A stretch of 64,000 nucleotides of DNA. Source: Eledone cirrhosa (Eukaryota). The first letter of the stretch is position 1; every line of letters begins with the position of its first letter. The translations under genes and the position numbers were made by a program. The notes beneath the pieces are model-generated. The model was given only the letters and a program-made list of their open reading frames with translations, had not been told where the DNA came from and made no database searches. Below, one piece after another: positions 10,220 to 63,356 of the stretch. The stretch covers positions 222,642,001 through 222,706,000 of the forward strand of contig OZ024742.1 of NCBI GenBank assembly GCA_964016885.1, read 5' to 3'.

Positions 10220-10220
10220 A

Positions 10221-12540
10221 TTGTTATACTTTGGGAGGGTCATGTTGCCAAAAAGAAACACACGCACCAGTTGCTTTCACTTCAATTTATTATAATAAAT
10301 TTATAAATTTCCGGTTGGTTGGTTGGTTGGTTCCACAACCAGATGGTTGTTTATATATTGTCAAAGTTCTTTCGTCACACATTCTGTGACCTCTTCAGTG
10401 ACTGGGGATTCTTTTCTTTGTTTTTGTGCCTCTCCTTTGTTCTGTCCTACGCCATCTTGTTTCTGTGTGTGTGTTGTGTGCTCAGTCCGCGCATGCGCCA
10501 CATCCGGGTGTCTGTGTGTGTTTATATTCGTTTATTTATTTGTTTATTTATATGTTGCTGGTTGGTTGTTTGTTCTATGTGCGTGTGTGTTTTCATTTTG
10601 TCCTTAATTGTAAGTTGTGATGTTGTTGTTCCACTCATGTTTTCTATTTAATTTTGGTTGTAATTCTTTTATGTTTATTGCCTCTGTGATTTGTCTAAAC
10701 ATTGTGTCTTTTCTGTGTGTAGATTCTATTTTTATTTCTATGTTCTCTAATTTACCCTTATGTTCTATTTTAGCATGTTGGTAGAGTACAGATGATTCTT
10801 TACTATCTTGAAGGTCTCGCCAGTGTTCATTTATCCGTTCCCCTACACTACGAGCTGTCTCACCTATGTACACTATATTTTTATCTCTACATTGTCCTTC
10901 AGTACATCTTATGCTATATACTACATTTCTAGTTTTACAGTTAATATGGGGGCTTAATTTACAGGTTATACATTTCTTATCTATACAGGGGGGTCTTTGA
11001 AAAGGGTATGTCTTGCTAATAAGTGTTTTTATGGAGGTACCTGGTCTTTCTACTATCTTAATATTGAGTTTATGTTTATCTAGGGCCCTTCTAAATTTGT
11101 AAGCTAATTCACCTCTAGAGGTTGTATCGATGAACACTACACTCTGGTATTTATTGCTATCATACCATGGGTTTATTCTATTAGCCTTATTCCTAGTTCT
11201 TTCTATTCTATTCCAAAATTTGCTCCTATACAAGGGGCAGGTCCCATTTGTGTCATTATTTACCATTTTTTCCCATTTGGTTCTGGCTCCTCTATACACT
11301 CTGATTTTATCTCTCTGATTGTAACCAGAGAACTGCATACGGTGGATGAAGTGTTGTATGTGTCTCTCTAGTTCTTCTGGGTTGCACATGCGGGACACGT
11401 TTCTCATCACCCGTACCAAATCCGCAATCAGTATGTTGATTTTGGTATGGTCCGAAACAGCTGAGTTTCGGTGGATCAGATATTTGGAAGTCATGGGTTT
11501 GGCATAATGGGAATGGAGGATTTGTCTTTTGTTATTAATGGTATCTAACCAGAGCTCTGTGTCTAGTACAGGTAATCGATGGTTGGGGTGTTTGCTTGGG
11601 TAATCTATAGTAACTCTAATACTCTGGTGGATGGAGTTAGCTATTTGCTGGATGCTTTCCATTGTGTTTTTCTCTAATTCCTGACTGTTCTCTAGTGGGG
11701 GTGTTTTAACTACGATGTTTATATCATCAATGTAGCAGGAGTACACTATCAGGGTTAAGGGGTCTTCTAATTGTTCTTTAAGTTTAAGTTTAAGTCTACT
11801 GTCCCACCATACCATGAATAAGTTAGCTATGTTGCCTGCAATGCTAACACCAATGGCTGCTCCCTCCTCTTGGGCATATGTTTTTCCATTAAATTTGAAC
11901 ATATGTTCCTTAAGGGTTAATTTTATGCTGGCCCCCACCGCATGTGCAATCATTTTCTTCAGTTCATCGTGGTTTTCGGGGGTCCGTATGGCTCTGGTCC
12001 ACCCGTTCCATCTATCTGGGTGGGTTTCTTGGCCATTGAGGTAATGGTAGGTGGTCTGCCTCTTGCTGGTCTTGTAGGGCACAGGTTGCTAAGGTCATAT
12101 GTGTCTAGATAATTATTACTATAGGTAAGTTTAAGTAGGAGTCCCAGTTCACTGGTATCAATCCCATGGAACTCAACATTGCTCTCACTGATCATTTCTA
12201 CGCATTTCTCCACAGCAAAATCCACGTCAATAGATGGATACAGGGACACAACATCCATACTACCTATTATGCAGTTTGTTAGGTCCCTAGATCGGTTACT
12301 CTCGCCGATTCTGCTGAGGAGGTCCTCCGTGCTGTCACATACATCTGGGGACATTTCAATGATGGGGCGTATGATCAGGGAGAGGAAGTAGGACAGTCTG
12401 TAGTTACTAGCAATGTTAGCTCCACAGACTGGCCGTGTTGGTTGTCCCGTGACAAGGACACTGCCCGTTTTATGGTCTTTTCGAAGCCCATACAACGCTG
12501 GCACGTCATTGTTCCAGGCCTGGAAATCCAGAAACGAAAT
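10221..12540 (-). mobile_element. Penelope-like element (RT + Cys linker + GIY-YIG endonuclease), 5'-truncated, one frameshift near 12035, flanked by (TA)n
   Basis: ORFs 11959-12504 and 10604-12082 contain LYGLRKDHK, RPV, SMDVVSLYPSI, GAAIG, YIDD, CIDKKCITC and VVYSIRC...YIGET...R..EH...EA. The 3' UTR/pLTR carries an HHR. Confidence 0.93.
10360..10402 (-). ncRNA. Minimal type I hammerhead ribozyme in the PLE 3' pLTR (family A)
   Basis: Minus strand reads GUCA CUGAAGA G GUCACA gaaug UGUGAC GAAA GAAC UU UGAC: helix I GUCA/UGAC, conserved core, helix II hairpin and vestigial helix III. Confidence 0.75.
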
Positions 12541-12776
12541 ATATATATATATTATCTAATAATATATATATATATATATATATAATATATATATATAATA
12601 TATATAATAATATATATATTATATATTATATATATATATATATATTATATTATTGTTTACAAACACACCGAGCATTATAATAAATGTTCGGTGAATACAT
12701 ACGTACATATATATATATAAACGGAAAAAATGAAACGAAATTTCATTTCTCACTCTTAGTACGGCTGTTACTTAAA

Positions 12777-13278
12777 TATAAGTATGTATACGTACATACA
12801 TATATGTATACAGACGGACAGTAGTATGTATATATATATACATACATGCACACACATATATATATATATATATGTACGTATGGATTCACTGAACATTTAT
12901 TATAATGCTCGGCGTGTTTGTAAACAAACATCCCGAATTAAGCCGTACAGTGTCTAGCAACCATCGTTGCTCATTTGTTCAACACTGACAAAGGAATGCT
13001 GTACTAGTTTCAAGCTTATTAGCTATTGTCAGCAACGTATACATTCCTGCCTTGAAACTAGTACAGCGTTCCTTTGTCAGTGTTGAACAAATGAGCAACG
13101 ATGGTTGCTAGACACTGTACGGCTTAATTCGGGATGTTTGTTTACAAACACACCGAGCATTATAATAAATGTTCGGTGAATCGATACGTACATATATATA
13201 TGTGTGCATGTATGTATATATATATACATACTACTGTACGTCTGTATACATATATGTATGTACGTATACATACTTATA
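12777..13278. repeat. Foldback palindrome family B (~235-bp arms, spacer 13015-13050) with a decayed central HHR
   Basis: Near-perfect inverted arms. The minus strand reads gttg CTGACAA tagct aata agctt GAAA CTAG TA cagc. Confidence 0.9.
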
Positions 13279-13332
13279 TATATATATATACAATATATTA
13301 ATAAATGGAAACTATATTTATAAAACCATATT

Positions 13333-13398
13333 TATTTTATTATATATATTTCAAGGGCAACCAAGGCAAATTATGGTGCACTTTCATCAGATAAAATA
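13333..13398 (-). ncRNA. Minimal hammerhead ribozyme with intact core (family C, left arm)
   Basis: UAUUUUAU CUGAUGA [AAGUGCACCA...UGGUUGCCCUU] GAA AUAUAUAU A | AUAAAAUA. Confidence 0.78.
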
Positions 13399-13571
13399 CA
13401 GATTTGTTTTAGAAATAAATATTGACATACCCGGAAAATAGACAACCTTAACGGTTGGAGCTTCCTGGATAGTGGAGATAGTACATTTATATCTCCACTA
13501 TCCAGGAAGCTCCAACCGTTGAGGTTGGCTTTTTTCTGGGTATGTCAATATTTATTTCTAAAACAAATCTG

Positions 13572-13637
13572 TATTTTATCTGATGAAAGTGCACCATAAT
13601 TTGCCTTGGTTGCCCTTGAAATATGTATAATAAAATA
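13572..13637 (+). ncRNA. Minimal hammerhead ribozyme with intact core (family C, right arm)
   Basis: CTGATGA at 13580-13586, GAAA at 13618-13621, helix III ATATGTAT, helix I TATTTTAT/ATAAAATA. Confidence 0.78.
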
Positions 13638-14346
13638 AATATGGTTTTATAAATATAGTTTCCATTTATTAATATATTGTGTATTTACTCCACTAACTGT
13701 TGAGTGCTTTATATCAGTTATAAAAATGTTTAAGCTAGTTAAATCCCAACAAATTAAATATAACCTCTGCATATATATATATCAGGTGCAGGCAACTACA
13801 CTGCACAACTACACAGTCCTGGGTTCAGTCTTGCTGTGTTGCAGTCTTGCAAGTGTTGTCTACTATAACCTTGGGTTGACCAATGCCTGATGATTGAAAT
13901 TTGGTAGATGGAAATTACAGAAGCCTGTCATCATGTGCATGTGTGCATGTGTGTCTATGTTTATTTGTGTCTGTGCCTGTATTTATGTCCAATAACTTAT
14001 CGGATTAACAAACCAAGTGATCAATATAGATTTGAAAAAAATAATTGCAGGTGTTGATATGATCAATTAAATCAATACGGTGCCCTAGCATGACCGCAGT
14101 TTAACAACTAAAACTAATAAAGGTATATAGACAGAAATAGATAGATAGCTGTTAATATTCTTTTTACTGTTTTCAGTCACCAGGCAGTGGCTCTGATGGG
14201 GCACTGCCTTGATTTAGTCAATTATATCGATTCTCATTATTTATTCCTTTCAAGTCTGCTCTAAGTTTTATCTATCTTCTTTTATTGAACTGATAAGTTA
14301 CAGAATATAATCAGACACAAACTTAGATGCAGGGATGGACACACAT

Positions 14347-14381
<35 letters not shown>

Positions 14382-14382
<1 letters not shown>

Positions 14383-15252
14383 CATCATCATCACCGTTTT
14401 ACGTCCGTTCTTCCATGCTAGCATGGGTTAGACGGGTTGTCCTGTTGAGGGCAGTGTCTGGTCGGCTGACCATGCCTTGCTCATACAGGAACTGATTTTG
14501 GCTTGATTTCTACAGCTGGATGCCCTTCCTAACACCAACCTCATTTACAGTGAGTGCTGGGTGCTTTTTTCCATGGCGCCTACACGTCCACTTTACAGTG
14601 TGGGCTGGGTGCTTTTTTTGCCGTGGCACCTCCACGACCACTTTGCAGTGGGAGGGTGTGGGGGCATATTGTCTATATGCTTCAGCTTGTACCCATGGGA
14701 GGTCGGGTACTCTGTATTACTGCGTGACGCCAGAGGTCACAGTCGTGTGTTCATCGCCTTTGAGAGGTGTAATTGGGTAAGTTCGGCTTTTATCACCTCA
14801 TCCCAGGTTTTCTTGGGTCTCCCCACTCCGCGGTTTCCATTGACTTCTAGTGCTCTGCACCTTTTTATGCAGCTGTCATCCTTCATACGCATCACATGTC
14901 CATACCAACGCAACCGCCTCTCCTGCACACAGCATTTGATTCCTCTTATGCTCAGTCTCTCTCTCAATTGATTTATGCTTTGCCGTTCGCGTATATTACT
15001 ATTACACATCCATCGGAACATGCAGGCTTTGTTTCTTTCTAATCTACGTAAGTCTTCCACCTTCAGCGCCCAGGTCTCACTACCATGTAACATTGCTGTT
15101 CGGATACACGCATCATACAGTCTGCCTTTCATTTTGAGGGAGAAGCCTTTTGCAGCTAGCAGTGGCAGTAGTTCCCTGAACTTCTTCCATCCCGTTCTTA
15201 CCCTAGTTATTGTACTTTCTGAACACCCACCTCCGCTACTAATTCGGTCACC
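14382..15252 (-). mobile_element. RTE LINE 3' fragment with 3' UTR and (CAT)n tail
   Basis: ORF 14737-15273 contains MLHGSETWAL, ERRLRWYGHVMR and GRPKKTW. Confidence 0.88.
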
Positions 15253-15272
15253 TATATATATATATTCGGTCA

Positions 15273-15321
<49 letters not shown>

Positions 15322-15612
15322 CAGGCTTCTGCAATTTTTATCTACCAAATTTACTCACCAGGCATTGATCAACTTGAAGATATAGGAGAAGACAACTTGT
15401 CCAAGGTTCCACACCGTGGGACTAATCTCAGAACCATGTGATTGCAAAGTAAACTCCTTAACCACACAGTTATCTTTGCACCTATAGATATAAAAACTAT
15501 GCAAATATAACAAAGCAGACATAAAAATAATGATGATGATGAATGCTTGTTAATGCCACAAGTAAAAAAACAAAGAATTATATAACATTAAAATTAATAA
15601 ATTGGAAGCTAC

Positions 15613-15658
15613 CTTTTTGGCCTCATTTCATCTTCACTGCTTTCAATATGTTTTGTAC
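15613..15658 (-). CDS. Gene A coding exon 2 (46 nt, phase 1/2): GTKHIESSEDEMRPK
   Basis: ttttcacaag acceptor and AG|gtagct donor; phases chain correctly with both neighbours. Confidence 0.75.
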
Positions 15659-15884
15659 CTTGTGAAAATGCAAAAAGTGTACCAGTTAAATGAAAACCAT
15701 TTTAACCCTTTTGTTGCCACAATTATAACGAAAGGCATAGCCTATGGTTTTCAAACCATTTTGAAATAATCAAGAATTTAGAAGGATTTAGTAATATATT
15801 TAATTTTCACACTATTAAGCTGGTGCTTGGAACGTAACTTAATAAAAGTTCTTACATAGAATTATGATGAAGGTTTTTAGATGA

Positions 15885-16260
15885 AGTGCTGATGTCACGA
15901 TAAAACGCATGCAGCCCACTATAAAGTGGAAGAGCTGGTGCCTCTATAAAATGTACCCAGACCACATTGTAAAGTGGTAGTGTTGGTACCAAATAAAAAA
16001 CACCCAGCCCACAACGTAAAATGGTAAAGTTGGTGCCACGAAAAAAAGCACCCAGTCCAGCCTGTTAATTGGTAGTGCTGGTGCCACAAGAAAATGAACC
16101 TAGTTCACGACATGAAGTGGTGAGCATTAAGAAAGGCATCGTGCTGTAGAAACTATATCAGAATGGAACAAATGAGCAAGACATGGTCATCTGACTTATG
16201 TAACCTCACAATGTGACAACTCATCTAGTCCATGCAAGCATAGAAAATGAAGTGATAATG
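15885..16260 (+). repeat. ~45-bp tandem units (ggtgccac.ataaaa.gcacccagt.cac..gtaaagtggtagtg) leading into an RTE/SINE-type 3' tail; similar arrays at 32445-32630 and 47140-47330
   Basis: Five to six visible degenerate units. Confidence 0.65.
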
Positions 16261-16899
16261 ATGAGGTAAAATCATACATTAGCCAGTTTATCATTATACA
16301 AAAAATTGCTATGTTCTTATTTTATATATTGGCATATTAATATTTAACATTTTGGTACTGATCCCACCAAATGACCAAACACAGTATGAGGTCACCTTCA
16401 CCTATAAAAGGTGAAGGAAGCAGTGGCTGCTTTGTTAGGCGGCAGATTTTGAAAGCAGTAGAGCTGGCTGCTGGCCCCCAATCAGTTAACTATGACAGCC
16501 TTTCATAGCTATCTCTTACTTTCTCATATCTAATGCTCATGTTGCTAGCCTATCCCTCTTAATTTTATATTTCATCAAGTACATGACATCAAAAACTCCC
16601 ACAGTTTATCTGTTCAATCTTTCATACAAAACACCTACCCCCAAACATTCTGTAGTTCACAAATTTGCTTCATCAATTTGTCATATTTCTTCCATTGTTA
16701 ACCTTATGACTTTCACCAAGATTTTAACATAGTTTCAAATCCAATACTTGACATAATAAATAACTGTTTTAGATAAGCAGACCAAAGTTCTAATAAATAG
16801 TAAGGAAAACAAGGCCCTGATAGAAAAATGGACATTAAATGGTGATGATGATGATGATAATGAAAGACATTGCCTATGATTTGCAAATATTTTTGGAGT

Positions 16900-19800
16900 A
16901 TCATCATCATCATCATAATTGTTTAACGTCCACCTTCCACGCTTGCATGGGTTTGGATGGGAATTTTCCCACTTGAGGCAAGATTGGTTGTCTTGCTCGT
17001 ATAGGACTTTCTGGCAGGTTTTCTACGGCTGGATGCCCTTCCTAACACCAAGCACGTTTACAGTGTGGACTGGGAGGTTTTTACCGTGTTACCTACACGG
17101 CCACATTACAGCGTGGACTGTGTGTTTTTTTGTCGTGACACCTACACGACCTCATTTATTTCGGACTGGATGTTGTGGTACCAACATAACTTTACATCGA
17201 AAGGGGTAGTGTGGATGGGGTGGGGGTAGTGGGATGGGGGTGTATTTTTGGTTAGGAGGTGCCTACTGACTGTAGGTTTCGCTTTGTACTTAGGCAAGGC
17301 GGGTCTCCTCTATTACTGTGTAGCGCCAAAGATCTCGGTCCAGTGACATTGTCTTGGAGAGTTGTAAGTGTGTGAGGTCGGAATTTATCAAGTCGTCCCA
17401 GGTTTTTCTGGGTCTGCCTATCTCCGTGGCTACCGTCTATTTTTATCGCCCTGTACTTTTTTATACAGCTGTCGTCTTTCATGCGCATCACGTGACCATA
17501 CCAACGTAGTCTTCTCTCGAATAAACAACATCTGATTCCTCTTATTCCTAATTTCTCCCTTAGTTCATTTATGCTTTGCCGTTCACGTATATTACTATTA
17601 CACATCCAGCGGAGCATGCAAGCTTCGTTCCTCTCTAGTTTGCGTATATCCTCTGCACACAATGCCCAGGTCTCACTGCCATGCAACATTGCTGTTTGTA
17701 TGCAGGCATCATACAGCCTGCCTTTCATTTTTAGAGAGAACCCTTTAGCGGCCAATAGTGGTATAAGCTCTCTGAACTTTTTCCATCCCGTTCTGACTCT
17801 AGCTACTGTACTTTCAGAGCAACCTCCAACACTGCTGATTTTGTCACCCAGGTAACGGAAGGCGTCCACTATAGAACCATCTGTGCAATGGAATGAGCTA
17901 GTATTCTGTGGGCACTTGCTGCTACTTATTGCACCTGAGCACCGGCCACATATAAAATCTATATTCTTAGTTAGCTTACCTGTGATCCCACTACATCTTT
18001 TATGCACCCATACTTTGCATTTGGGACATAAAACTCCTTTCCTACACACTGAGCATGGCCATTTCCCAGATTACAAACTAGAACTTTAGTCTTAGACAGG
18101 TTAATTTTAAGGCCTTTTGATTCTAGGCCATGATTCCATGTTTGGAATTTCTTCTCGAGTTCAGCCATTGATTCAGCTGTGAGTGTTGGATCATCTGTGT
18201 ATAGGAGTTCCCATGGGCAGCCGGTCTTAAACTCCTCTGTTATAGCCTGAATGGCAATAATAAATAGTAGGGGGCTAAGGACGGAGCCCTGATGAACACC
18301 AACTTTTACACTAAACTCTTCACTATATTCGTTGTTAATTCTAACCTTGCTGACTGTTTCTTTATACATGGCTTGTATAGCTCTCACAAGCCATTCATCA
18401 ACACCTAGTTTTCTAAGAGCCCACCAGATAATGGAGCGGGGTACTCTATCAAAGGCTTTCTCCAAGTCAACAAAAACTAAGTATAGGGGTTTACTTTTAG
18501 CTAGGTACTTCTCCTGTAGTTGTCGTACAATGAAAAGAGCGTCTGTTGTACTTTTACCTGACACAAACCCGAACTGCATTTCATCTAGATCAATTAGCTC
18601 TCTGATTAGTTGCGCTATTACTTTTTCTGTGACCTTCATGACCTGGTCAATTAATTTAATGCCTCTATAGTTTCCCCTATCTAGGGCATCTCCTTTACCC
18701 TTGTAGCAGTTAATGATGATGATGCTACGCCAGTCCTTCGGAACGACCCCATTCTGTATGACTTGGTTTACTATCTGGGTGACCATAGTGTGTCCCACCG
18801 TTCCAGATGCTTTCAGCATTTCAGCAACTATTTCCAAAGGCCCAGCCGCCTTGCCTGTCTTCATATCTTTGATCACCTTACTTATTATACTACCTTCAAC
18901 TTGCACTGCTGGTCTCTCTATTGGATCGATGTGGGGGAGACTGTCTTTCTCCCAATTATTCTCCTCATTTAGTAGCCTTTCGTAGTGACACTTCCAAGCT
19001 ACCTTTTTATCAGCGTCAGTGATGGCAAGTACACCATCATCATTAAGGACACACTTCTCCCCGACAATATCACGGTTTTTCTTGACACATTACCTAGCAA
19101 TCCTGAACACCTCACGTTTTTTGTGCTCGCGTTGTAGAACATGCTTGAACTTTCTTTCCTCTGCTTCCCTTCTTGCGAAGTACACTTGTCTCCTAGCTTC
19201 CCTCCTGGCTACTTGATAGTCTTCTCTACTTACCCCATCCTGACATGCTTTCCAAGCCTGCTTTTTGGCCTTACTGTTCCACCACCAACTTACTCTCCTC
19301 CGGCCTATAGGTCTGCTCCAGCCACAGATTTCATCTGTCGCCTTCAGTAGGTTAGCTTTCAGGAATTCCCACTGTTCCTCTCTATTGTACGACTCTAATT
19401 GCTCTTCCTTACTATCAAAAGCATCAAGTAATATGCTTTTAAATTTATAACTGGCTGTGAGGTCCTTTAGCTTCGATATTTTTCTCCTGGGGATAGTCCT
19501 CTTCTGTTGTCGAGTACGTCTCGTCCTGACTATGAGGTCGCTAATTATGAGTCTATGTTGAGAGGTGCATTCTTCATGGGGGGGGGGGGGGGGGGGTTAG
19601 TGTTTACAACAGACACTCTGTCACGTCTTCTGGTAAGGATATAATCTACCTGGCTGGTGTGTTCCCCTGATCTATAGGTGATCAAGTGATTGTCTCATTT
19701 TTTGAAGTTAGTGTTACAGATAGTTAGGTTATTTGCGTCACAGAATTCCAGGATTCTGGAGCCTTCCTCATTTCTAGTACCAAACCCATAGCCTCCATGG

Positions 19801-20365
19801 ATTCCGTCATAGCCGTCACAATGTTGTCCAACGTGACCATTTAGGTCGCCAGCGATAACTATGTAGTCACTGTCGGATATTTGGGAGGTAGTGAGCATTA
19901 ACGTCTCATAGAATCTGTCTTTTATAACGCCAGGCAGTCCGGATTGTGGTGCATATGCAGATATTATTGTCACAGTAGTTCTATTGAGGACAAGTCTTAT
20001 TCTGTCGTTCACTCTATTTACGTCTATTATCTTATCTGCTACCATGATTCCTACTCCACCCAGCCCATTGTCATTTCCCACCCAGAAAAGCTTATAGCAT
20101 CGTTCTTTACCCACAATGAATCTAGCAGACCCGCCCCTCCACCTGGTCTCTTGAATACAGCAAACATCGACCTCCTTACATTCAAGCATTTCTACAACCT
20201 CGTTAGAGCGACCTTTTAAGGTGCCTACATTCATGGTACCAACTCTAAAGTTTTGGATTGCGTTTGGATTGCGTTTGGTGGGGCGCAGGGGGGGTATGTT
20301 AGCCATCCGCGGCCAAAATAAAGAGGAGGAGTCCTTGCATTCTCGTCCGGCAGCATGAGGTGAAT
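16900..20365 (-). mobile_element. Near full-length RTE LINE (APE endonuclease + RT), frameshifted
   Basis: APE motifs TMNVGTL, IQETRW, SAYAPQ and GDLNGH (19695-20306). RT motifs FVDLEKAFDRV, GVHQGSVLSP and YTDD (17971-18906). C-terminal ORF 17252-18049; (GAT)n tail. Confidence 0.93.
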
Positions 20366-21342
20366 GAGGTGAATTTTTGTTATTATTAAGTTGGTGTTTG
20401 GAATATAAATATTCTTATGATGGAAGGTTTTAGTTAAATGTAAACACTAAAACAAAGCTTTATATCATAGAACCAGGAGCACATTTTAGCATGTTGGTAT
20501 CAAAACTGTTAAACTGTATCAAAACAAATCAAACACAGGATGAAAACATCAGTAAGACTACCTTCTTTTATGTATTAATGAACATTTCAAAAAAATTAAT
20601 CCTGTTTTCAGCTTGATAAAATCAGGGTAACATAGGGTTGTTAATAATGGTTACTGTCTGTCCCAAGCCAGAAAGCTCATCAAGCCTGAACTCATCTCGA
20701 TTTCATTGACGTTAAGAGACTGAGAATACAAGACTCACTGTTTGATGGTATGCTAGTCCATCGCATGGTTAACCCCTAGCTTCTGGTGGTACTCATTTTC
20801 AGCTGAGTTAACAGGAGTGAAATGAAATAAAGTATTTTGCTCAAGAACACAACCTGCTGCCCAGTCCAAGAATCAAATCAACAACTTAACACTTAAACCA
20901 CTAGGCCATGCACCTTTACAATAAAGAGTTGTGATAGTAACTAATATCTAATTCAACATCATTAGAAAGTTATAGGGTTTAATAAAATAAAGGAAGTGAC
21001 TTTTGTATATTTTATAAATAGTTAGGCCAAAAGGTGGGGACTGTACCTATTCCTTTTGCAAGCTCTCAGAGACCAATAAAATCAATATGGTTAAGACAAA
21101 TGTAGGCAAGGTGATAATTCTTGAGGGCCAATGTTCTGGGTGAAAAGACCAAATGATGATGATGATAATAAAAAAGACAGTATGGTTATAGAGTTCACTT
21201 TAGAACCATGTGGTTTCGGGATTAGTCCCACTGAACGGTACCTTTGGCCAAGTGTCTTCTACTATAGCCTTGAATCGACCAATACCTTGTGAGTGGAATT
21301 CGGTAGGCAGAAAATGTGAGGAAGGTTATCATATACATACAT

Positions 21343-21828
21343 ATATATATATGAATGTATATATAGTGTATTTTGCAATACACTGTATGCTTAATTAAAA
21401 GCATTTTGAAGACCTTACGCTATTGTTTTAGAGTAGTGACAATCTCACTTACTTTAAATTTTCAGCAAACAGGGGGAGATAAAGCTGACAGAGTTCTATT
21501 TGGTACTTCACTATTTCAGAGCACCAATTCTAATTTTCAATTTCTGCTTGACCGGAAACCGCTCTGTATAATCAGTTCCTGATTAATACTAGAATTCTAT
21601 AAGAATCAAACATTCATGATTTTCAGCAAACAGGTGGAGTACTTAGCTTTCATAAGTACCAAATCGTACGAAACAGAGCTCTGTCAGCTTTATCTCCCCC
21701 TGTTTGCTGAAAATTAAAGTAAGTGAGACTGTCACTACTCTAAAACAATAGCGTAAGGTCTTCAAAATGCTTTTAATTAAGCATACAGTGTATTGCAAAA
21801 TACACTATATATACATTCATATATATAT
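21343..21828. repeat. Foldback palindrome family D (~160-bp arms) with an HHR relic at 21645-21689
   Basis: Inverted arms 21343-21505 and 21667-21828. The plus strand reads agct TTCATAA gtac caaatc gtac GAA ACAGAGCTCTGT C agct. Confidence 0.88.
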
Positions 21829-21909
21829 CGGTATTTCAGAGCACCAATTCTAATATATATATATATATTCAAAATATTAACAAAAATAGAACTTCTTGTG
21901 ATCAAATAT

Positions 21910-21973
21910 ATTTTATTATACATATTTCAGAGGTACTAAGCTAACTTCAACAGTACGTCCTCATCAGATAAAA
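21910..21973 (-). ncRNA. Solo minimal hammerhead ribozyme with intact core
   Basis: UUUUAU CUGAUGA GGACGUACU..loop..AGUACCUCU GAA AUAUGUAU A | AUAAAA. Confidence 0.75.
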
Positions 21974-22495
21974 CAAGATGATGCATGACATACCCTGACA
22001 TAGTAGATGGTTAAGATCCAGTCAAGGATCCATATATATATCCAGTCATGGATCTATATATATATATATATAGGGGGGGGGGGGGTCCTTGTTACCAGGC
22101 AAAACAAATGTTAACACTTTAGCATTCACATTATTCTATAAATACTATTATATTTTCATGGTAAAGACTTTACTTCACATAATATCGAATCTATGAGATT
22201 TTGAAAGTATTTATTTTGAGAAAGACAATACCTTAACATCAGTTTGAGTGACCAGTTACAGTCAGTTTCAAAGGAAAGAAGTAGAGAATTCTGGCCGGTT
22301 TTGGCTGGTTTGAAAAATAGTTAATAGGGTTGATATAATCAAATAAAAAAAAAAATTGGAGCAACCACATCATGGCCACAATCTAATGATGGAAACCATT
22401 AAAAAATAAAAGAATAATGAAGATGATAATGGTGCTACCAGCGACAACAATGATGATGGCAATAATGATGATGATATGCTATATATTTTCCTTAA

Positions 22496-22688: not shown

Positions 22689-22726
22689 TTAAATATGTAA
22701 TAATTTACATAAGAAACTCTATTTAC

Positions 22727-22757
22727 CTCCACTCTTTCTTTTCCTTAATCCAGCCAT
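22727..22757 (-). CDS. Gene A first coding exon, MAGLRKRKSG (exon 22727-22779 includes 22 nt of 5' UTR)
   Basis: tttccatttcag acceptor at 22780-22781; an in-frame TAG sits immediately before the ATG at 22757; GAG|gtaaat donor, phase 1. Confidence 0.75.
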
Positions 22758-25139: not shown

Positions 25140-25171
25140 AAGTGAAACTTCAATACTGCCTCTAAACATTT

Positions 25172-25263
<92 letters not shown>

Positions 25264-25295
25264 AAATGTTTAGAGGCAGTATTGAAGTTTCACTT
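25140..25295. repeat. Perfect ~37-bp inverted repeat flanking a long (TA)n
   Basis: aagtgaaacttcaatactgcctctaaacatttaaatta-(TA)n-taatttaaatgtttagaggcagtattgaagtttcactt. Confidence 0.9.
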
Positions 25296-46020: not shown

Positions 46021-46057
<37 letters not shown>

Positions 46058-47473: not shown

Positions 47474-49520
47474 CTACAAGAATTTAAAACAATATAATTG
47501 AAATAAAATGTTTTGTAATTTTTAAAACATGCACAGGCAGTCATCTTAAGAACAATGTATTACAACTAATCATTATTTTTATCAGTAGAGCGTCAGACAC
47601 CATGTTTTGCAGCATAGTTATGGACCTTCACATTCTGAGTTCAAATCCTGCTGAGGTTAGCTTTGCCTTTCATCCTTACGGGGTCGATAAAATAAAGCAC
47701 CAGTAATGCACAGGGGTAATTGTTGGCCTTGTGCCAAAAGTAGAAACAATTATTTTTACATCCCCAATACCATGCTGGTATGAGTTGAACAGGATGGTTT
47801 GATACAGCTGAATGCTCTTAGCACCGACCCTTTTAGTCACCTCTTATACACTGAGTATAACTGATCCAGGTAATGTTCTTTTTGTTAGTCTGGTCTTATT
47901 TTAACTTTTATAGTTCAATAGCTTAACATTTTTAACCTTTTTGCATTTACATTACTCTATATTTACTATTATATTTTCATGGTACCCCACATAATATCAA
48001 ATCTATGAGATTTTGATACTATTTATTTGAGAACAATACCTTAACATCTGTATAAGTGGCCGGTTACAGCTGGTTTAAACAGAAAGAGGTGAGAGAATTC
48101 TGGCCAGATACAGCTGGTTTAAATGCTAAAGGGTTGATGTAATTGTTTGGTTCATGATTCCAATACGTAGTGAATATTATATAATTATGGTGTGGACTAT
48201 AATTTAATGTTTTCTCTTTCTCTCTTTTCAGACACAGGTGTGCTTATTCTAAAAAAAAAAAAGGAGGGGGGGATACACACAGCATAACAGTAATAAAAAA
48301 TAAAAAGTGGGTGAGGACTTCTGGTTTTGACAATGAGTGTTCTAGTTGTTCATCCAACAGAACAGCCTATTTGTTAAATTAACATGTAAGTGGCAGAGTA
48401 TTATACAGATGAAATAAAAAGGAAAAAAAAAAAAAAATTTACAGCTCACACTTATGCAGGTTTAGCTTGGGTGTTTTAATAATAGGGAGCTTAGTCTTAT
48501 CATAAACAGCAGCATGAAATGAAGTGTCTTGCTCAAGAACACAATACACAACCAATTCAGAAATTTAATCCATGACCTTATGATTATTACTCCAACACTA
48601 ACCTCTGGCCATAGAACCTCATGCCCAGTATTTGACTGATATTTTATTTCATTAAACCTTTAGCATTTAAACTGGCCGTATCTGGCCAGAATTCTTTCAC
48701 CTCTTTCTTTTCAAATTGGCAGTAACCAGGTGCTCATACTGATGTTAAAGTATTGTTCTCTAAATAAATAATATCAAAATCTCATAGATCCAATATTACG
48801 TGAGATAATTATGTGAAGTAAAGCCTTTACCGTGAAAATGAAATAGTATATATAGAGTAATGTAAATGCTAATGCTAAAGGGGTTAACTCCAGAAGGACA
48901 AAAGGCAAAGTTGACTTCAGTGAGATTTAAACTTAGGTGAAGAGCCATAACTAAATACCACAAAACATTTTGTCTGACACCCTATTGATTCTGCTAATCC
49001 ACAACCCTCGTGTCACAATAACTAATTAAAAAAGTAAATAGATTTCTGGTTTCAACAAGTGTTCCAATTGTTCTTTCAATGAAACAGCATATTTGTTAAA
49101 TTAATGTGTAAGTGGCTGAGTATCCCATAGATACATAATTCTTAGTTTCTAGCTACCCAGCTTCACTTACAAGACATGAGCTGACCCAAGGCTATGGTAA
49201 AAAAACACACTTGAAGTGCCACACAGTAGGACTGAACCGAAAACCTTACGATTGTAAAGCAAACTTAACTATTCAGCCATGCAATCATAAGATAATATTA
49301 CCATAAATAATGGTTTCTAATTTAGGCACAAAGCCAGCAATTTGGTGGAAGGGAAAGTCAAATCGACAACCATCCACAAAGTTGAAAGGCAAAGTTGACC
49401 TCAGCAGGATTTGAATTCAAATGCTACAAAGCATTTTATATAATTAATAAGAGTTATAATTATATAATGAGAAATAAATGCCCGAATAGTTCCAAATATT
49501 GTAAATTTTTTTTAACAAAA

Positions 49521-49552
<32 letters not shown>

Positions 49553-49564
49553 AATGTATGTATA

Positions 49565-50820
49565 AAATCAAAAGGCCTTAAAATTAACCTGGCTAAGACT
49601 AAAGTTCTAGTTTGTAGGAAAGAAAATAAGGCGGCGGTCCCTTCCGGGAAATGGCCATGCTCAGTGTGTAGGAAAGGCGTAGGTAGAAACTCCATTTTAT
49701 GTCCCAAATGCAAAGTATGGGTGCATAAAAGATGTAGTGGGATCACAGGTAAGTTAACTAAGAACATAGATTTTACATGTGGCCGGTGCTCTGGTGCAAT
49801 AAGTAGCAGCAAGTGCCCACAGAATACTAGCTCTTTCAATTGCGCAGATGGTTCTATAGAAATAGTGGACAGCTTCCGTTACCTGGGTGACAAAATCAGC
49901 AGTGGGGGAGGGTGCTCTGAAAGTACTGTAGCTAGAGTCAGAACTGGTAGGAAAAAGTTCAGAGAGCTTATACCACTATTAGCCACTAAAGGGTTCTCCC
50001 TAAAAATGAAAGGCAGGTTGCATGATGCCTGCATACGAACAACAATGTTGCATGGCAGTGAGACCTGGGCATTGTGTGCAGAGGATATACGCAGACTAGA
50101 GAGGAACGAAGCTTGCATGCTCTGCTGGATGTGTAATAGTAATATACGTGAACGGCAAAGCATAAACGAACTAAGGAAAAAATTAGAAATAAGAGGGATC
50201 AGATGTTGTTTACTCGAGAGAAGGCTACATTGGTATGGTCACGTGATGCGCATGAAAGACGACAGCTGTATAACAAAGTGCAGGGCAATAAAGATAGACG
50301 GTAGCCACGGAGTAGACAGACCCAGAAAAACCTGGGACGAGCTGATAAATTCCGACCTCACACACTTACACCTCTCCAAGACAATGTCACTGGACCGAGA
50401 CCTTTGGCGGTACTCAGTAATAGAGAAGACCCGCCTTACCTAAATACATAGTAAAACCTACTAGTCAGTAGGCATCTCTAACAAAATACACCCCCGTCCC
50501 ACCCACACCGCCCCTTTCAATGTAAAGTTATGTTGGTGCCACAACATCCAGGCCGAAACAAATGAGATCGTGTAGGTGTCACGACAAAAAAAACACACAG
50601 TCCACGCTGTAATGTGGCCGTGTAGGTAACACAGTAAAAACCTCCCAGCCCCACACTGTAAATGTGGTTGGTGTTAGGAAGGGCATCCAGCTGTAGAAAA
50701 CCCGCCAGACAGTCCTATGCGAGCAATGACAACCACTCTTGCCTCAAGTGGGAAAACTCCCGTCCAAACCCATGCAAGCGTGGAACATGGACGTAAAATG
50801 ATGATGATGATGATGATGAT
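49565..50820 (+). mobile_element. RTE LINE 3' part, same subfamily as 16900-20365
   Basis: ORF 49664-50443 is nearly identical to 17252-18049; shared 3' UTR; (GAT)n tail. Confidence 0.9.
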
Positions 50821-55481: not shown

Positions 55482-56739
55482 CAAAATGCAAATGTAGAAT
55501 TGGCACCTCTATTTAAACAAATAATAATATACTATTCTGAAAACTATGATGTAAACAAATATTGCTTTCCTTTCATATTGTAACTGGCATCCAAAAATGG
55601 CAAACACAGACAGATTAAAAGAATACAAGTGGTCTGAGGAGTGAAAGGTGGTGGCATACAGTTTGCACCAGCATGAATAACAAGGCCATTGTTGACAACA
55701 TAAATCTCTCATTGCCCACAGTCCAGGGGGTGAAGGAGTTAGAGGACAGTAACATTAATGTTGACATTGCAGCTGCTAGGAAAACTCATAATTGCACAAA
55801 ACGAAGGGTAAGAAATGCTGATTTCATCTAGAAAGTTAAACAGTTTATTGAGGAAGACCCCTCCATTGGGATATGCGAGATTGCCAGGCAACTGGACTGT
55901 GATAAGAAAATTGTTAGAACTTGTGAGAAAGAAGACCTTCGTTACAAGTACTACAAGATACGGACAGGACAATTTTCTCCCTCAGATATCCAAGAACTGT
56001 GTGAAGAGGGCTACGAAGCTGTTGAACAATCTCCTGGAATTAAACGTGGTTTTTCTCAGGTAAAAAATAAAACTTTGGCCAAAACAAGCAGAATAACAGA
56101 TGGTTAGCAGATAGCCCACATGATGTTCCCAGGGTCATGAAAACCAAGTTTCCTGTCCATATCATGGCTTTTGGTGTGATCAGCAGTGAGAGACATGTCA
56201 TGCCTCCTCACATTTTTAATGTAGGCCCAAAGTTGACTCAGGATGTATATCAGGGGGTTCTGGAGACTAGTGAAGCCCTGGATTGAAGACGTGGCAGTAG
56301 AAAGACCTTATGTGATCCTGAAAGATTTTGCACCCACACACACAGCCAAAAAGACTCAAAAGTAGCTCTCAGACAACTTTTACAGTCATGTCAGCCCAAA
56401 CATGTAGCCCCCTAATTCTCCAGACTGCAATCTTCTGAACTATTTTTTCTGGGCGTGGTCAAGAGAGTCACCAACAAGACTGCCTACAACACCAAGGACG
56501 AGCTGAAGCAGCACATCTGCCAGGCATTCCAAGATTTACCAGCTGCAACTGTGAAACCAGCTTGTTCCTGATACCAAGGTTGCCTTGAGGAGGTTAGAGA
56601 TTATATTGAATAATTATGTAGTATACGGTTCCAGTAATTTCGTGTATCTTGAATTTTCAATAAATCTTAAAAAATAAAGATTTCATGGGTTTTTTTCCCT
56701 GAATTCTGTCAGCCATACCAATTCTACATTTGCACCCTG
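55482..56739 (+). mobile_element. Tc1/mariner-superfamily transposon relic (probably DD37D/maT type)
   Basis: TIRs ca(aaa/ggg)tgcaaatgtagaattgg with TA at the left end. The pseudo-transposase reads QNNRWLA..KFPVHIMAFGVISS..FAPTHTAKKTQ..PPNSPDCN. Confidence 0.8.
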
Positions 56740-56770
56740 TGTGTGTATATATATAGTAATAAATTAGAAG

Positions 56771-57099
56771 GCAGTAATCTATAATTTCACCACATTCTAT
56801 AATCTAATCACTTATACGTATTTCGATGGTATCTGTTATGTAGTCCTCGGACATGATCTCTTCAAACAGTTCTCACTTGCACACACATTAGCGATGCAAG
56901 TTCTTATGTGATATACCAGCTGGAAAGCTTAGTGTTTTCTTCATTGCCAGCTGGTATATCTCATAAGAACTTACATCATTAATGTTTATGCAAGTGAGAA
57001 CTGTCTGAAGAGATCCTATCTGAGGATTACATCACCGATACCACCGAAATACGTATAAATGATTAAATTATAGAATGTGGCGAAATTCTAAAATACTGC
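56771..57099. repeat. Foldback palindrome family E with an HHR-like motif (57000-57060, + strand)
   Basis: Diverged inverted arms; actgt CTGAAGA G...C GAA ATACGTAT A. A third fragment at 57310-57370 supplies the matching ACAGT. Confidence 0.8.
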
Positions 57100-58135
57100 G
57101 TGGTGTGAGTAGGTTATGTCTGAAAGGATGGTTGGCTGGTAGAGAAGCAGAGACCAGCGGCCAAAACGATGGCTTGATAATGTTAACTTATGGACTGGAC
57201 TTGATCTTTGCTCTTTAAACTCTGCTGCTAGTGATCGAACTTTGTGGAGAAAAATATCTCATGTTGATACGCAGTCTGCAACTGGCGGAGTTTAGCGTCA
57301 AAGTAAGTAGTACCACCGAAATACATATAACAGTGATTACATGATAGAATGCAGTGAAATTCTAATGTACTATCTTCTAATTGATTACGATTGCAACATT
57401 CTGTCGTACACACATCTACGTGATAATATAACGAGGAAACTATACAACGTCGAGTGCTCAATGTGCTTACACAAGTATTTATTGATTCATACTTGCAACT
57501 GGGAAACTAATAACGGATTAACATAAAATTACTATTTTATATATATATATATATATATATACGTGGAGGGCCCTTGTTGTAGGGGTACCCTCGTGGGCAT
57601 TTAAAACTAACAGAACCCATCTGTATGTATATATGCCATGTCTGCGTTCAACAAATAGATATCAATAAAATATATACCAATCTTGAAAAATAGAAACGAA
57701 AAATACAGGGGGTTGATATGATCGACTAAATCCTCTAAGGGTGGTGCCACAGCATGGCCGCAGTCTAATGACTGAAACCGGTAAAAGAATTTAATGCAAA
57801 ATGAGAAGCAATCCACACGTTCATTGCAGTAAAGTATGTAATTAGGTAAGCTAGACTTATGTGTGATGGTGTTGTTTTTATCAATGACAGAAAAATATTT
57901 GTAAACGGTCGTCTATAAATGATTTTCACTGGTATAAAAATGGATAAATGCTTTATATAATTTTTTATAATATCTAAAATAAAAAAAAAATTTTTAAATG
58001 ATTTTTAAAACATGAATGATGATCTTGGTAAATTCTGTATTACGATATACAATAAGATGTGAAGAATTTATTATAAATATATTTCAAAACATTTTAGCCA
58101 CGGTCAAGCTTAAAACCGTTTTGATGGTGAAATGT

Positions 58136-58172
<37 letters not shown>

Positions 58173-58299
58173 CCCACTTTGAAAAGAGCATTAAGCACGA
58201 AACTCCTAGCCCTCGAAACACGGGTATAACTTCGCAACACCAATATACATCTCCACCCATATATATATATAAAATAAATATATACACACATATATAATA

Positions 58300-58635
58300 T
58301 ACATACACATAAATAAATATAATATATTATAAATAAATATATATAAATAAATATTATATATATATATATATATAAATAAATAAATATTATATATATATAA
58401 ATAAATAAATATTATATATATATATATAAATATTATATATATATATATATAAATATTATATATATATATATATAAATATTATATATATATATATATAAAT
58501 ATTATATATATATATATATAAATATTATATATATATATATATAAATATTATATATATATATATATAAATATTATATATATATATATATAAATATTATATA
58601 TATATATATATAAATATTATATATATATATATATA

Positions 58636-58690
<55 letters not shown>

Positions 58691-58750
58691 TTATATATGT
58701 ATATATAAATAAATATTATATATGTATATATAAATAAATATTATATATAT
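58300..58750. repeat. Compound AT minisatellite, ~23-bp unit (AAATATT(AT)n)
   Basis: Visible tandem periodicity. Confidence 0.9.
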
Positions 58751-59681
58751 GTGTGTGTCGCCCATTATAAGGGTGAATGCGGAGGGTACATTTGTAAAAT
58801 AGACAATGAGATGAGATTGCTTAACGGGAGTTGGATATTTTCACTAGGTCAGACACATTAAGTCCAACACCGAAACCCCCTTTTTATATATTTTTAAGAG
58901 CACTTCTTCAGTTAATGCAGCCATGGGAAGGGAGTAAAAATACAAGGCAGGAGAAGGGGGAGGTGGAGCAAGAGGAGGAGAAGCACAATAGAGATTTCTC
59001 TCAACAAAGCGCGCACATAAAATTTGTTTGACAAAACATGCATAAATGCCGGTATACTCGCTACTGTACTGCTTTGCAAATATAAATGAAGCGGAAATAT
59101 TTAATAGTGTGAATGAACGTGACATATGCATTAATAGATATCTATATATGTCTGTCTGAAATATAAATATACCGGTTTAAAGAGACATCGAATATGACAG
59201 GGGCTAACGGTGGCAGTAGCAGCTGTCTGTCCGGTATGATGAATGAGCCATCCATATAGATAGAAAGTAGCGAGCCATGACACACGCAAGTACCCGTCAT
59301 TCATTCATTTAGACAGACAAGAGATTATAGTCAAGCACTAACAAATTATAACTAATATATAGATATTCGACGTAAATAAGGAATTAAATAAAGGGGGTAA
59401 AAGCTAGATTTAAAAAGGTAAATGAGATATTAAGTGAGAATGGATTTTTAAAAAGAAACGAACCGTTGAATAAAAGATACGTGTTATGTTTAAGTGAGTA
59501 CAGACAGTTCATATTACTAATACAGAAGATAATTTTATGTATAAATAAGCGAAAATAAAACAAGGGATTTTGAAAATAACGAAGGTAAAATGCAGAAGAC
59601 GATTTGACAGCCATTACATTGTACAACACAACATGACATGACAACGAAGACCATTTTTCTACATGTGGCTTGTCAACTTAC

Positions 59682-59819
59682 TTTGAATCTGTAAATTGGT
59701 CGTGTAGCATTGGAATAACCGGCTAGCATTATCGCTATTTTTTCCATAGATCCATGAAGATTTGTACCTTCTCTGTACATCTGTACAGAGACATCTAGAA
59801 GATAAAGGCGAGAGTTCAT
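59682..59819 (-). CDS. Gene B exon 1 (MNSRLYLLDVSVQMY...PIYRFK); the full product is a 216-aa tandem muconolactone-isomerase-like protein
   Basis: ATG at 59819; AAA|gtaagt donor, phase 0. The five exons sum to 651 nt, i.e. 216 aa plus stop. Confidence 0.82.
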
Positions 59820-60675
59820 TGTAGCGGACGGAGGCCGATATATATAAGATATATGCCACAGCTACCCGCGCTCTATGACGGTGACAAACAACAAATGTTT
59901 CCCTAGAATAATATTCCGTTGAATCTGTATTTTCAATTTTATTAGACATAATTTACGATCTTTAAAAATTACTTTACCTACTTATATTATTATCAAACAT
60001 AATATGTTTCTTTTTTAATTATTATATTTAAAATGCTATATATAATTTATGTTCGAAAAGTGTCTAAGCAGAACTATTAAAACGCAATCGTAAAGAAAGG
60101 AAATGTAGTATTACTCATAATAGAATTTATTTTTTTATTTGTTTTCATCTCTGTTTACCATTTAATAGATTCAATCCATAAGTGTTTTGGGGTATCAAAC
60201 CTTGTATTGAACGAAATCTAACATGTTCAGATGCTCTCATAATTTCTTTAAATAAACTTTTTTTTTTAATTAACAATTGTATGCAATATTTATATTACAA
60301 GAGACTTATAACACTGGTACAGAAATATTCCGTATCTTAAAGAAAATAAAATTTTCTCGTTCGATTCACCGATTTCATTTTGCATGCTCCGTTCATATAA
60401 TAATAATAATCCGCCACGTGTGTTTGTAAATTTATATCTCTATCCGTTTGTAACTGTTAAACATTTACGTAGACATACACAATGAATTTCTTAAATCAGA
60501 AGTTAGAAGATACAGTTAGAAGTTCGCTTTGCAAGCATTCTCAAAATTCTGGGTTTAACTCTACGTTTGCCCCATAAATTGTTATTTCTCCAAATTTACT
60601 CATACATTTAATGTTGTATGTCATTTATACATACATGGTGAACATTTATGTAATTATATCCGAAAAATAAATCAT

Positions 60676-60918
60676 TAAAATATCGTTTTTATCTTTAATA
60701 ATTTCCAGTAAATAGTATAAACTATAAGATTTCTCTTATGAAAACCATTAATACATATTTATGTTTATGTGTATGAAGTGCATGCATGTAATACTCAATG
60801 CATACATTTCATACACACAAACATAAATATGTATTAATGGTTTTCATAAGAGAAACCCTATAGTTTATGTTGATTACTGGCACGTGGAAATTACTAAAGA
60901 TAAAAAATGATATTTTAG
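60676..60918. repeat. Foldback palindrome F (~110-bp arms)
   Basis: tttctcttatgaaaaccattaatacatatttatgttt and its reverse complement flank a centre near 60792. Confidence 0.85.
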
Positions 60919-61116
60919 TATATAGTAGTTATAAATATATATTTTATTATTCACAGTTGAATCAATAATATTACAAATTGTTAATAATTCTTACAGACTG
61001 AAAATATAAACACATAATAAATACAATTATTGCTTGGAACCTCACAGAAGTATATAGTGAAAGTGAGAGAAAAAAAACAAGCAAAAGCAACCATCAGAAT
61101 ATATGTATGTGTGTGT

Positions 61117-61557
61117 GATTTCTTATCTGAAAACGTGTTGAAACAGATATTGTTATACTTTTGAAGGGTCATGCTGTCAATAAAAAAACATGCCCCTGTT
61201 GGTTTTCACTTTAATTTATTACAAATTTCTGGTTGGTTGGTTCAATAACTGGATGGTTGTTTACATATTGCCAAAGCTCTTTCGTCACACATTCTGTGAC
61301 CTCCTCAGTGACTAATTTGTTATGTAGGACAGAACAAAGGAGAGACAAAATAACAAATCAGTCACTGAGGAGGTCACAATGTATACCGAAAGAGCTTTGA
61401 CAATATACAAAACAACCATCTAGTTATTGGTCCAACCAACTGGAAATTTGTAATAAATTGAAGTAAAAACCAACAAGGGCCTGTGTTTTTATTGGCAACA
61501 TGACCCTCCCAATGTATAACAATATCTGTTTCAACACATGTTTTCAGATAAGAAATC
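61117..61557. repeat. Foldback of two family-A pLTRs, each with an HHR (61270-61312 on minus, 61361-61401 on plus)
   Basis: Arms are homologous to 10221-10405. The plus arm reads GTCA CTGAGGA GGT..ACC GAAA GAGC TT TGAC. Confidence 0.88.
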
Positions 61558-62245
61558 TTGCAAAACAAATTAAAAAACGAACAGATGACCATATATGAGC
61601 AAGACATGGTTACAACAGGACAACCCATCTAACCCATGCTACCGTAGAAGAATGGACGTAAAATGGTGATGATAATGATATATATATATATTACAAATTA
61701 TCCCCCGTCAATGTCTGATATATATATTTTATATATATATATGTCAATCAACCTTTAATTTAATTTATATATATATAATACCTAAATTAAATTAAAGATG
61801 TCGTGTCTGAGAATATTAAAAACATGCACCATACCACCTGTAGAATAAGCTCAAAGATTCTAAGGAATAAATCTGAGCATTTATTAGCATTGAATTAAAA
61901 AGCGATTGATATATATATATATATAAAATAAACACATCAAACAATTACAAGGAATAATTTGTAAAGGGTGTAAACACACATAGTTACAGAGGTAACATAA
62001 ATTTACACACACACATTTGTGTCATCATCGTCATTACTGTTTAACATGTATTTTCCATGCTTGCATTGGTTTGATGGGTTGTCATGTTATGAGGAAAGCC
62101 AGGTCAGGTGACTACGTCTTACTCATACATATCTGTTTTCAACTTCGCTTTCTATGACTAAATGCCCTTCCTAATGCCAACCACATTACAGCATGCACTG
62201 GAAGCTTTTTTGTGGCAGCACCACTGGTAGGCTGGAAGCTTTTTC

Positions 62246-62288
<43 letters not shown>

Positions 62289-62374
62289 ATACTTTGGGAG
62301 GGTCATGTTGCCAACAAATTCAGAAACGAAATATATGTATATATATATATGTATATATTTATATATATATATAT

Positions 62375-62630
62375 GCAGAGGTTATATTTAATTTGTTGGG
62401 TATTCAACAAGCTTAAACATTTTTATAACTGATATAAAGCACTCAACAGTTAGTGGAGTAAATACGAAATATATTAATAAATGGAAACTATATTTATAAA
62501 ACCATATTTATTTTATTATATATATTTCAAGGGCAACCAAGGCAAATAATTTGCCTTGGTTGCCCTTGAAATATATATAATAAAATAAATATGGTTTTAT
62601 AAATATAGTTTCCATTTATTAATATATTGT
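62375..62630. repeat. Shorter family-C foldback, centred inside HHR helix II (~62547), with the same one-sided tail
   Basis: Matches 13290-13372 and 13596-13770. Confidence 0.88.
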
Positions 62631-62714
62631 ATATATATATATATATATAAGAATAACATTAAGAAAGAAAGATGATGTGTTTACATATAGCATTTATTCA
62701 TTATAATTATTTCT

Positions 62715-62900
62715 ATGGGATTTCCTGGCATTTCTTCACTCATCGGTCATTGTCCATACCAATGCAGTCTTTTCTCCTGCACACTACCTCAGATTTCTCT
62801 TAAAGCAAGCTTCTCCCTCAGCTCATCAAATCTCTGCCTTTCTCTTACACTTAGATTGCACATCCAACGAAGCATGATTGCTTCATTTCTCTCCAGTCTC
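62715..62900 (-). mobile_element. RTE 3' fragment
   Basis: Reverse strand reads LERNEAIMLRWMCN..ERRLHWYG. Confidence 0.7.
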
Positions 62901-62907
62901 TCTCTCT

Positions 62908-62947
<40 letters not shown>

Positions 62948-63094
62948 AACGATCGACTTTCGTCAAAATCGGACCGAGGGAACAATGTTTCCGTTGGTCT
63001 TTCCAATTGCTAATACTATCTATCGGTCGCAACTCCTATATATATATATATATATATATAGTTAAAAGAATAGAGGTGTAACACACAAGTTATT

Positions 63095-63347
63095 ATATAT
63101 TGGTAAACGGAATAGAAAATGCTGACAAATTGTTCACAGTTGAAAAATGGTTTAATCAGAGCAAACAGCACGGACACTCTATCTCAAAATTATTTTTGAA
63201 AAGCATTTAGAAATGCGCAACCGGTAAAAACTTAAAAACTTAAAACCACAACTGAATACTAACCCATACAATCACTAATACTCTTTTATTCCTAATTAAA
63301 CCATTTTTCAACTGTGAACAATTTGTCAGCATTTTCTATTCCGTTTA

Positions 63348-63356
<9 letters not shown>
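63095..63356. repeat. Element with perfect ~65-bp terminal inverted repeats, abutting (TA)n
   Basis: ttggtaaacggaatagaaaatgctgacaaattgttcacagttgaaaaatggtttaat and its exact reverse complement. Confidence 0.85.

Follow-up and report, generated by a model that had tools for sequence, protein, structure and literature searches.

As far as the cited sections describe them, insertions of Penelope-like elements (PLEs) show head-to-head inverted pseudo-long terminal repeats (pLTRs) with a tail at one end (PMC3846280; PMC8557442; PMC8969392), and in vitro, according to the portion of that report drawn on here, the tail is the stretch between two start sites of the reverse transcriptase (RT), both target strands being cut and extended (PMC11167929). 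Opposite-strand hammerhead pairs 100-700 bp apart are described for Schistosoma in the relevant section of PMC4209133, and mobilisation of retrozymes by PLEs has been proposed, going by the main texts, from co-occurrence (PMC7229834) and from pLTR phylogeny (bioRxiv 2026.07.22.740005). Here we analyse a 64-kb window of the Eledone cirrhosa genome (GCA_964016885.1, contig OZ024742.1, positions 222,642,001 to 222,706,000; coordinates below count from its first base) within the 3.0-Gb assembly that contains it. Self-comparison of the window located six local palindromes at 12773-13282 (family B), 13283-13687 (C), 21337-21834 (D), 56771-57099 (E), 61117-61557 (A) and 62468-62628 (C again), all six of which a first-pass annotation of this DNA had placed, as several palindromic families, in TA-rich repeats. 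We consider it highly probable that these palindromes are single insertion events made by PLE enzymes, with A and C representing PLE ends, and B and D retrozymes that lack any open reading frame (ORF) and borrow those same enzymes.

A and C are like the PLE insertions in the published descriptions cited above in their inverted 5'-truncated copy, one-sided tail, (TA)n targeting and hammerhead near the 3' end, whereas B and D, unlike these, show the PLE footprint without any ORF. The tails here (~55 nt in A and B, ~85 nt in C, ~175 nt in E) compare with 30-40 bp as the usual length given for PLEs in those sections. In other respects B and D match the animal non-LTR retrozymes, as the main texts portray them (PMC7229834; bioRxiv 2026.07.22.740005), sharing ORF-less tandem units of ~300-400 bp, GC below 45%, one type I hammerhead per unit, a range from monomers to long arrays and the presence of PLEs in the genome. 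Circular RNA expression belongs to the published retrozymes, whereas B and D are known here from DNA sequence. Tails, two 3' ends and inverted arms are not described in the main text of either retrozyme report, and we found no published description of a PLE footprint on retrozymes in a search that left out subscription journals and supplements.

It is this footprint which links the families. Among the 30 best genomic matches taken per family, each family has two fixed 3' ends (sites 1 and 2) that lie a tail-length apart beside (TA)n, while 5' ends vary. The (TA)n tract follows the 3' end in all 27 D copies, 23 of 26 B, 26 of 28 C and 19 of 29 A copies, and inverted arms occur within 1.5 kb in 17/28 D, 16/30 B, 9/30 A and 6/28 C insertions. 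Where arms are inverted, one outer end sits at site 1 and the other at its counterpart in 15 of the 16 D insertions that could be classified (binomial p 2.6e-4), in 11 of 11 B insertions (p 4.9e-4) and in seven of the nine A insertions, five B cases and one D case being only partly classifiable. The B, C and D copies in the window and the PLE at 10218 follow the same rule. Left out of the counts were L087 (a duplicate of L086) and L088, L013 and L022 (second matches on one insertion), while L038 and L055 were removed from the B inverted counts as false inverted calls caused by the internal palindrome of B; first-look searches gave 3397 A, 1422 B, 1733 C, 1890 D and 51 E candidates, which are not copy numbers. 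The window insertions of B, C and D lack symmetry, each having a tail at one end (~55, ~85 and ~26 nt, respectively) that lies wholly or partly beyond the coordinates of the first-pass annotation. Arms within one insertion diverge about as much as copies between loci (3.1% vs 3.9% in B, 3.7% vs 3.8% in D), a comparison that does not separate a circular from a linear template, and contigs over 21100-22200 show no interpretable empty site. On balance, we lean towards the view that the ends of B and D insertions record mobilisation in trans by PLE enzymes that primed on both strands of (TA)n, the RT starting at two mapped sites. The elements concerned are the following.

10218..12540, minus strand: autonomous PLE, 5'-truncated, with RT, CX4CxxC linker and C-terminal GIY-YIG; frameshift near 11959-12088; tail-less 3' end in (TA)n and a 12-nt inverted tail end at 12529-12540.
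10364..10398, minus strand: minimal hammerhead motif of this PLE, with an extra base between positions 9 and 10.1.
12653..12705, plus strand: short extra B fragment adjoining the B tail.
12717..13279: family B insertion (427-bp retrozyme), junction near 13050; the minus-strand direct arm ends at site 2 (12717; tail 12717-12775), the inverted arm at site 1 (13279).
13002..13032, minus strand: B hammerhead, the sole complete one in the window copy; G8-to-A allele, predicted inactive.
13290..13772: family C insertion, inverted 5'-truncated 3' ends from a second PLE clade; ~85-nt tail on the right only.
13341-13390 (minus strand) and 13580-13629 (plus strand): hammerhead motifs of this C insertion.
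21343..21854: family D insertion (321-bp retrozyme), junction near 21507; the plus-strand direct arm ends at site 2 (tail 21829-21854), the inverted arm at site 1 (21343).
21620..21713, plus strand: D hammerhead, in which helix I is long, the core is of the U3-A8 type and helix III has 4 bp; cleavage is predicted after 21685, but with G5-to-C in its core the window copy is predicted inactive.
21870..22024, minus strand: family F, a single non-palindromic end related to C, with a hammerhead motif at 21917-21967.
56752..57099: family E insertion, cores near 57005 (plus) and 56865 (minus), helix I broken in both arms.
57311..57560, plus strand: second, more diverged E fragment, with tail.
61117..61581: family A insertion, inverted PLE 3' ends with motifs at 61274-61308 (minus) and 61365-61397 (plus); full tail on the right, partial tail on the left.
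62281..62332: minimal A-type insertion of 52 bp (~35 nt of 3' end plus inverted tail end).
62373..62630: second C insertion, tail on the left; the centre lies inside helix II, leaving no complete ribozyme.

By the sequence-level definition, B and D are two new families of non-LTR retrozymes; they consist of ORF-less tandem monomers of low GC with one type I hammerhead per unit, that of B having a non-standard 10.1-11.1 pair. The B unit measures 427 bp and the D unit 321 bp, with hammerheads spaced 426-433 bp and 321 bp apart, respectively; sequence upstream of the ribozyme is in each case the rest of the family's own unit, which closes on itself. The longest stop-free frames run to 72 codons in B and 60 codons in D at 35% GC. 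A B array of ~25 units occupies C3:72261556-72272376 and a D array of ~41 units C2:208895095-208908285; the head-to-tail joint of D is also present in assembled contigs of public runs. At L187 and L205, the B array begins precisely at site 2, adjacent to (TA)n, and has a higher-order repeat structure in which units two apart are nearly identical. As for RNA, none of the public runs listed as containing D is an RNA run, and four runs that are possibly RNA yield one 31-base contig, which speaks neither for nor against expression. B has an octamer-like word upstream of its ribozyme, and newt satellite 2 reportedly uses a promoter of the small nuclear RNA (snRNA) type; when B was compared with three U2 upstream regions, however, AT-rich matches alone came up (best shuffle p 0.025 of 18 comparisons) and we dropped an snRNA-type promoter as a candidate. 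The U2 snRNA genes themselves form a tandem array with a period of ~2.2 kb at C3:307.35-307.45 Mb.

A and C, judged from sequence, are 3' ends of autonomous PLEs because GIY-YIG coding sequence lies upstream of them. In A, a GIY-YIG C-terminus directly precedes the end in the six longest copies translated. Identity between A and the end of the 10218 element is only 74-78%, which makes A a related subfamily and not, as had been thought, that element's own pLTR. In C, the arm is preceded by ~1.5 kb of non-coding sequence and then by a GIY-YIG domain, to which L151 adds an RT-like region. The C-linked ORF has no Pfam match and was identified by its motifs together with its Atlas neighbours, clusters where GIY-YIG or RVT_1 is found in a minority of members; it is distant from the window PLE, the two ORFs being barely alignable. 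Both have the cysteine linker. A and C thus combine what characterises 3' ends of EN+ PLEs, namely an upstream ORF with RT and GIY-YIG, a hammerhead in the terminal repeat, 5' truncation, an inverted copy and an optional tail. In none of 30 tail-bearing copies does the C tail run on into the start of an ORF. Family E is old, its identity to other copies being 71-87%, and has two 3' ends; shared upstream sequence was recovered over ~365 nt, in which no ORF, no tandem units and no parent element were found.

With a type I hammerhead descriptor that also allowed the U3-A8 core, the window gives six matches, compared with one in 30 dinucleotide shuffles made in 500-base blocks. These six are both A arms, both arms of the C insertion at 13290..13772, the PLE end (10364-10398) and F (21917-21967, minus strand), the last being absent from the first-pass annotation; the window copies of B, D and E and the second C copy fail the descriptor. 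Rfam returns no hammerhead on the window (sub-threshold microRNA-like hairpin matches only) or on 11 loci. At the family level, the core reads CUGACGA in 24 of 30 B copies (the window allele in 3/30), UUGAUAA in 25 of 28 D copies (the window G5-to-C in 2/28) and CUGAUGA in 27 of 28 C copies. The D core is a U3-A8 variant, which PMC4209133 gives as a covariant of C3-G8, and its relative L189 has a C3-G8 core plus a compensatory pair in helix I. Metazoan PLE minimal hammerheads, as presented there, share with our families the palindromic helix III, the extra base between 9 and 10.1 (A) and the U3-A8 core (D); compared with them, the long helix I and 4-bp helix III of D bring it nearer to canonical type I, albeit with the U3-A8 core.

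Several expectations about these ribozymes can now be set against the motifs. Self-complementary helices III are present as claimed, and motif positions bear out that the 3' ends of the ribozyme sense strands point outward. Cores said to be intact in A, C and E are so in A and the first C copy, but both arms of the second C copy (62373-62630) lack a CUGAnGA word and E suffers from a deletion, common to both arms, that breaks helix I, the family core being the upstream one of two CUGAnGA words. Conversely, mutated cores in B and D apply to the window alleles and not to the families, B being intact (CUGACGA) and D a U3-A8 variant. A ribozyme pair in every palindrome does not hold, since B and D each have one complete motif, with the other arm cut inside the ribozyme, and a ribozyme-bearing transcript from either strand is open to A and to C at 13290..13772 (one motif per strand) but not to the second C copy. 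Covariation, proposed as a check, does appear: in helix II of D, dispersed copies have GUAC/GUAC, L190 has GCAC/GUGC and the long array has GCAU/AUGC, i.e. compensatory changes across three subfamilies. Further multi-copy families with differing helix II and palindromic helix III turn up among the fetched loci by descriptor, a set selected for pairing and hence not independent covariation. The hammerhead motifs are in our view genuine sequence features, and self-cleavage is predicted. At least eight more hammerhead families lie in fetched flanks (L008, L033, L039, L004, L059, L110, L126, L152), of which the L008 type is B-like in the core region and contains several octamer-like words, while L033 contains partial repeats of its own ribozyme; in public contigs, a joint from 21992 back to 21914 suggests F copies with the ribozyme repeated every ~78 bases.

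Could the palindrome itself be what moves, as an ambisense hairpin class with two ribozymes? A and C in the window do have a motif on each strand, and roughly nine other C palindromes are centred within ~15 nt of the window C centre. The centres of these nearby C palindromes, however, span 70-81 bases as opposed to 66 in the window, and the one pair that shares its length is likely a segmental duplicate. Moreover, inversion junctions are all distinct among those mapped (17/17 in B, 16/16 in D), and genome searches with the window junctions of C, D and B brought up no second identical junction among 40 scored candidates each, so the identical centres sought as the sign of a propagating unit are missing. 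Two complete motifs are confined in the window to A and C (13290..13772); of the six copies named, the other four (B, D, E and C at 62373-62630) have no such pair. An ambisense unit, as the first-pass annotation had imagined it, is on these grounds scarcely credible, and copies do not share both ends and a centre as those of a miniature inverted-repeat transposable element (MITE) or foldback unit would. What does stand from that annotation is the notion of hammerhead-bearing products of PLE-type insertion that are mistakable for MITEs; a retrozyme-like class is right for B and D too, yet not as a hairpin, the propagating unit being the head-to-tail monomer of 427 or 321 bp. The B/D hairpin is likely made afresh at each insertion.

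Two other readings concern the origin of B and D. They could be pLTRs of autonomous PLEs outside our sample, their tandem units being a local matter and dispersed copies being ordinary truncated PLE ends; retrozymes are after all reported as pLTR-derived in the main text of bioRxiv 2026.07.22.740005, and the sample is limited to the 30 top matches per family. We nevertheless regard this as improbable, given that, 5' of the ribozyme, dispersed copies simply carry on round the circular unit and, past the tail, lead back to the ribozyme and not into an ORF, and that several (TA)n insertions exceed one unit length. In addition, tblastn over 58 B/D loci finds no PLE ORF that leads into a full unit in the manner of a pLTR, and the sole sense-oriented neighbour of a direct arm in that search (L047) is a broken ORF. 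Even less probable is movement by twin priming of long interspersed nuclear elements (LINEs) or by rolling-circle transposition of the Helentron type, with a non-autonomous element carrying the satellite. LINE RTs occur in the window, LINE insertions can show inversions at 5' junctions and B has internal TA-rich hairpins. B and D, on the other hand, are without poly(A), and their inverted arm duplicates the 3' end from a second fixed start, a pattern that twin priming is not known to produce; rolling-circle elements have two fixed termini, with which variable 5' ends do not fit. The footprint is also shared by genuine PLE ends of this genome.

Against the reading we prefer, PLE insertion with B and D as borrowers, several points have to be held. 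The samples are biased towards copies covering the whole query, and no autonomous partner of B or D was identified among the top 30 matches per family, nor do B and D share sequence with A or C ends. C fits the opposite-end rule less well (4/6 after inspection, 5/6 by script), (TA)n is missing from the 5' junction of about ten B/D copies and no target-site duplication is readable within (TA)n. Long B and D arrays may have grown by unequal crossing-over. As to the ribozymes, the 10.1-11.1 pair in B is U-U where G-C is usual, RNAfold of B, C, D and E fragments gives no full hammerhead fold and eight of nine retrozyme dimers stayed uncleaved in vitro according to the main text of bioRxiv 2026.07.22.740005.

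How PLE enzymes might generate the palindromes can be sketched. Each would pair a 5'-truncated copy head-to-head with a second, inverted copy that is likewise truncated at its 5' end. The RT/GIY-YIG protein of a PLE would bind multimeric or circular RNA, which in A and C would be the element's own and in B and D that of the parasite, and both strands of the (TA)n target would be nicked. Through annealing to AU-rich RNA ends, one cDNA would then start from site 1 and its partner from site 2, with the two being joined wherever each stops; if both are long, a foldback would result. Counted from the cleavage site, the cDNA starts would fall at about +219 and +274 in B and at about +144 and +170 in D. 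Hammerhead cleavage is predicted to reduce tandem transcripts to monomers, with D possibly cleaving as a monomer and the other four families (A, B, C, E) as dimers through the palindromic helix III, and we assign the hammerhead no role in the hairpin. Joins to another PLE without intervening TA were seen among the 58 B/D loci in three antisense (L038, L068, L083) and two sense-oriented cases (L047, L081). In the antisense cases, at C2:155.38 Mb, C3:328.05 Mb and C9:6.08 Mb, respectively, a retrozyme arm stands head-to-head with the 3' portion of another PLE in inverted orientation. Chimeric co-insertion and nested insertion with deletion are not distinguishable here, and these loci offer a possible lead only; that they are single events with two RNAs, naming the helper element, we think unlikely.

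Elsewhere in the window, unrelated hammerhead-bearing elements cluster in shared (TA)n tracts, namely at 10218-13772 (PLE, B, C), 21343-22024 (D, F) and 62281-62630 (A fragment, C). LINE-type fragments with endonuclease, RT and PHD finger lie at 17252-20414 and 49505-50443, and a second RT fragment at 6451-7449. Three further palindromes contain no hammerhead by descriptor: 25140-25295 has perfect 38-bp inverted arms flanking a (TA)n tract and was not found among fetched loci; 60676-60917 is an imperfect AT-rich palindrome of 242 bp, likewise not found among other fetched loci; and 63034-63396 belongs to another multi-copy foldback family in (TA)n whose centres vary between loci.

The palindrome architecture and both element classes were already known, and we define no new class. 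For annotators, foldbacks of this kind are neither MITEs nor microRNA hairpins. What the window adds is the occurrence, on two non-coding retrozyme families, of the two-start-site footprint that true PLE ends have in the same genome, and since this footprint is common to B, D and the PLE ends, it supports PLE mobilisation of animal retrozymes from insertion anatomy. If true, a link so far drawn from co-occurrence and phylogeny would become directly testable in vitro, with exact priming sites and short defined RNAs.

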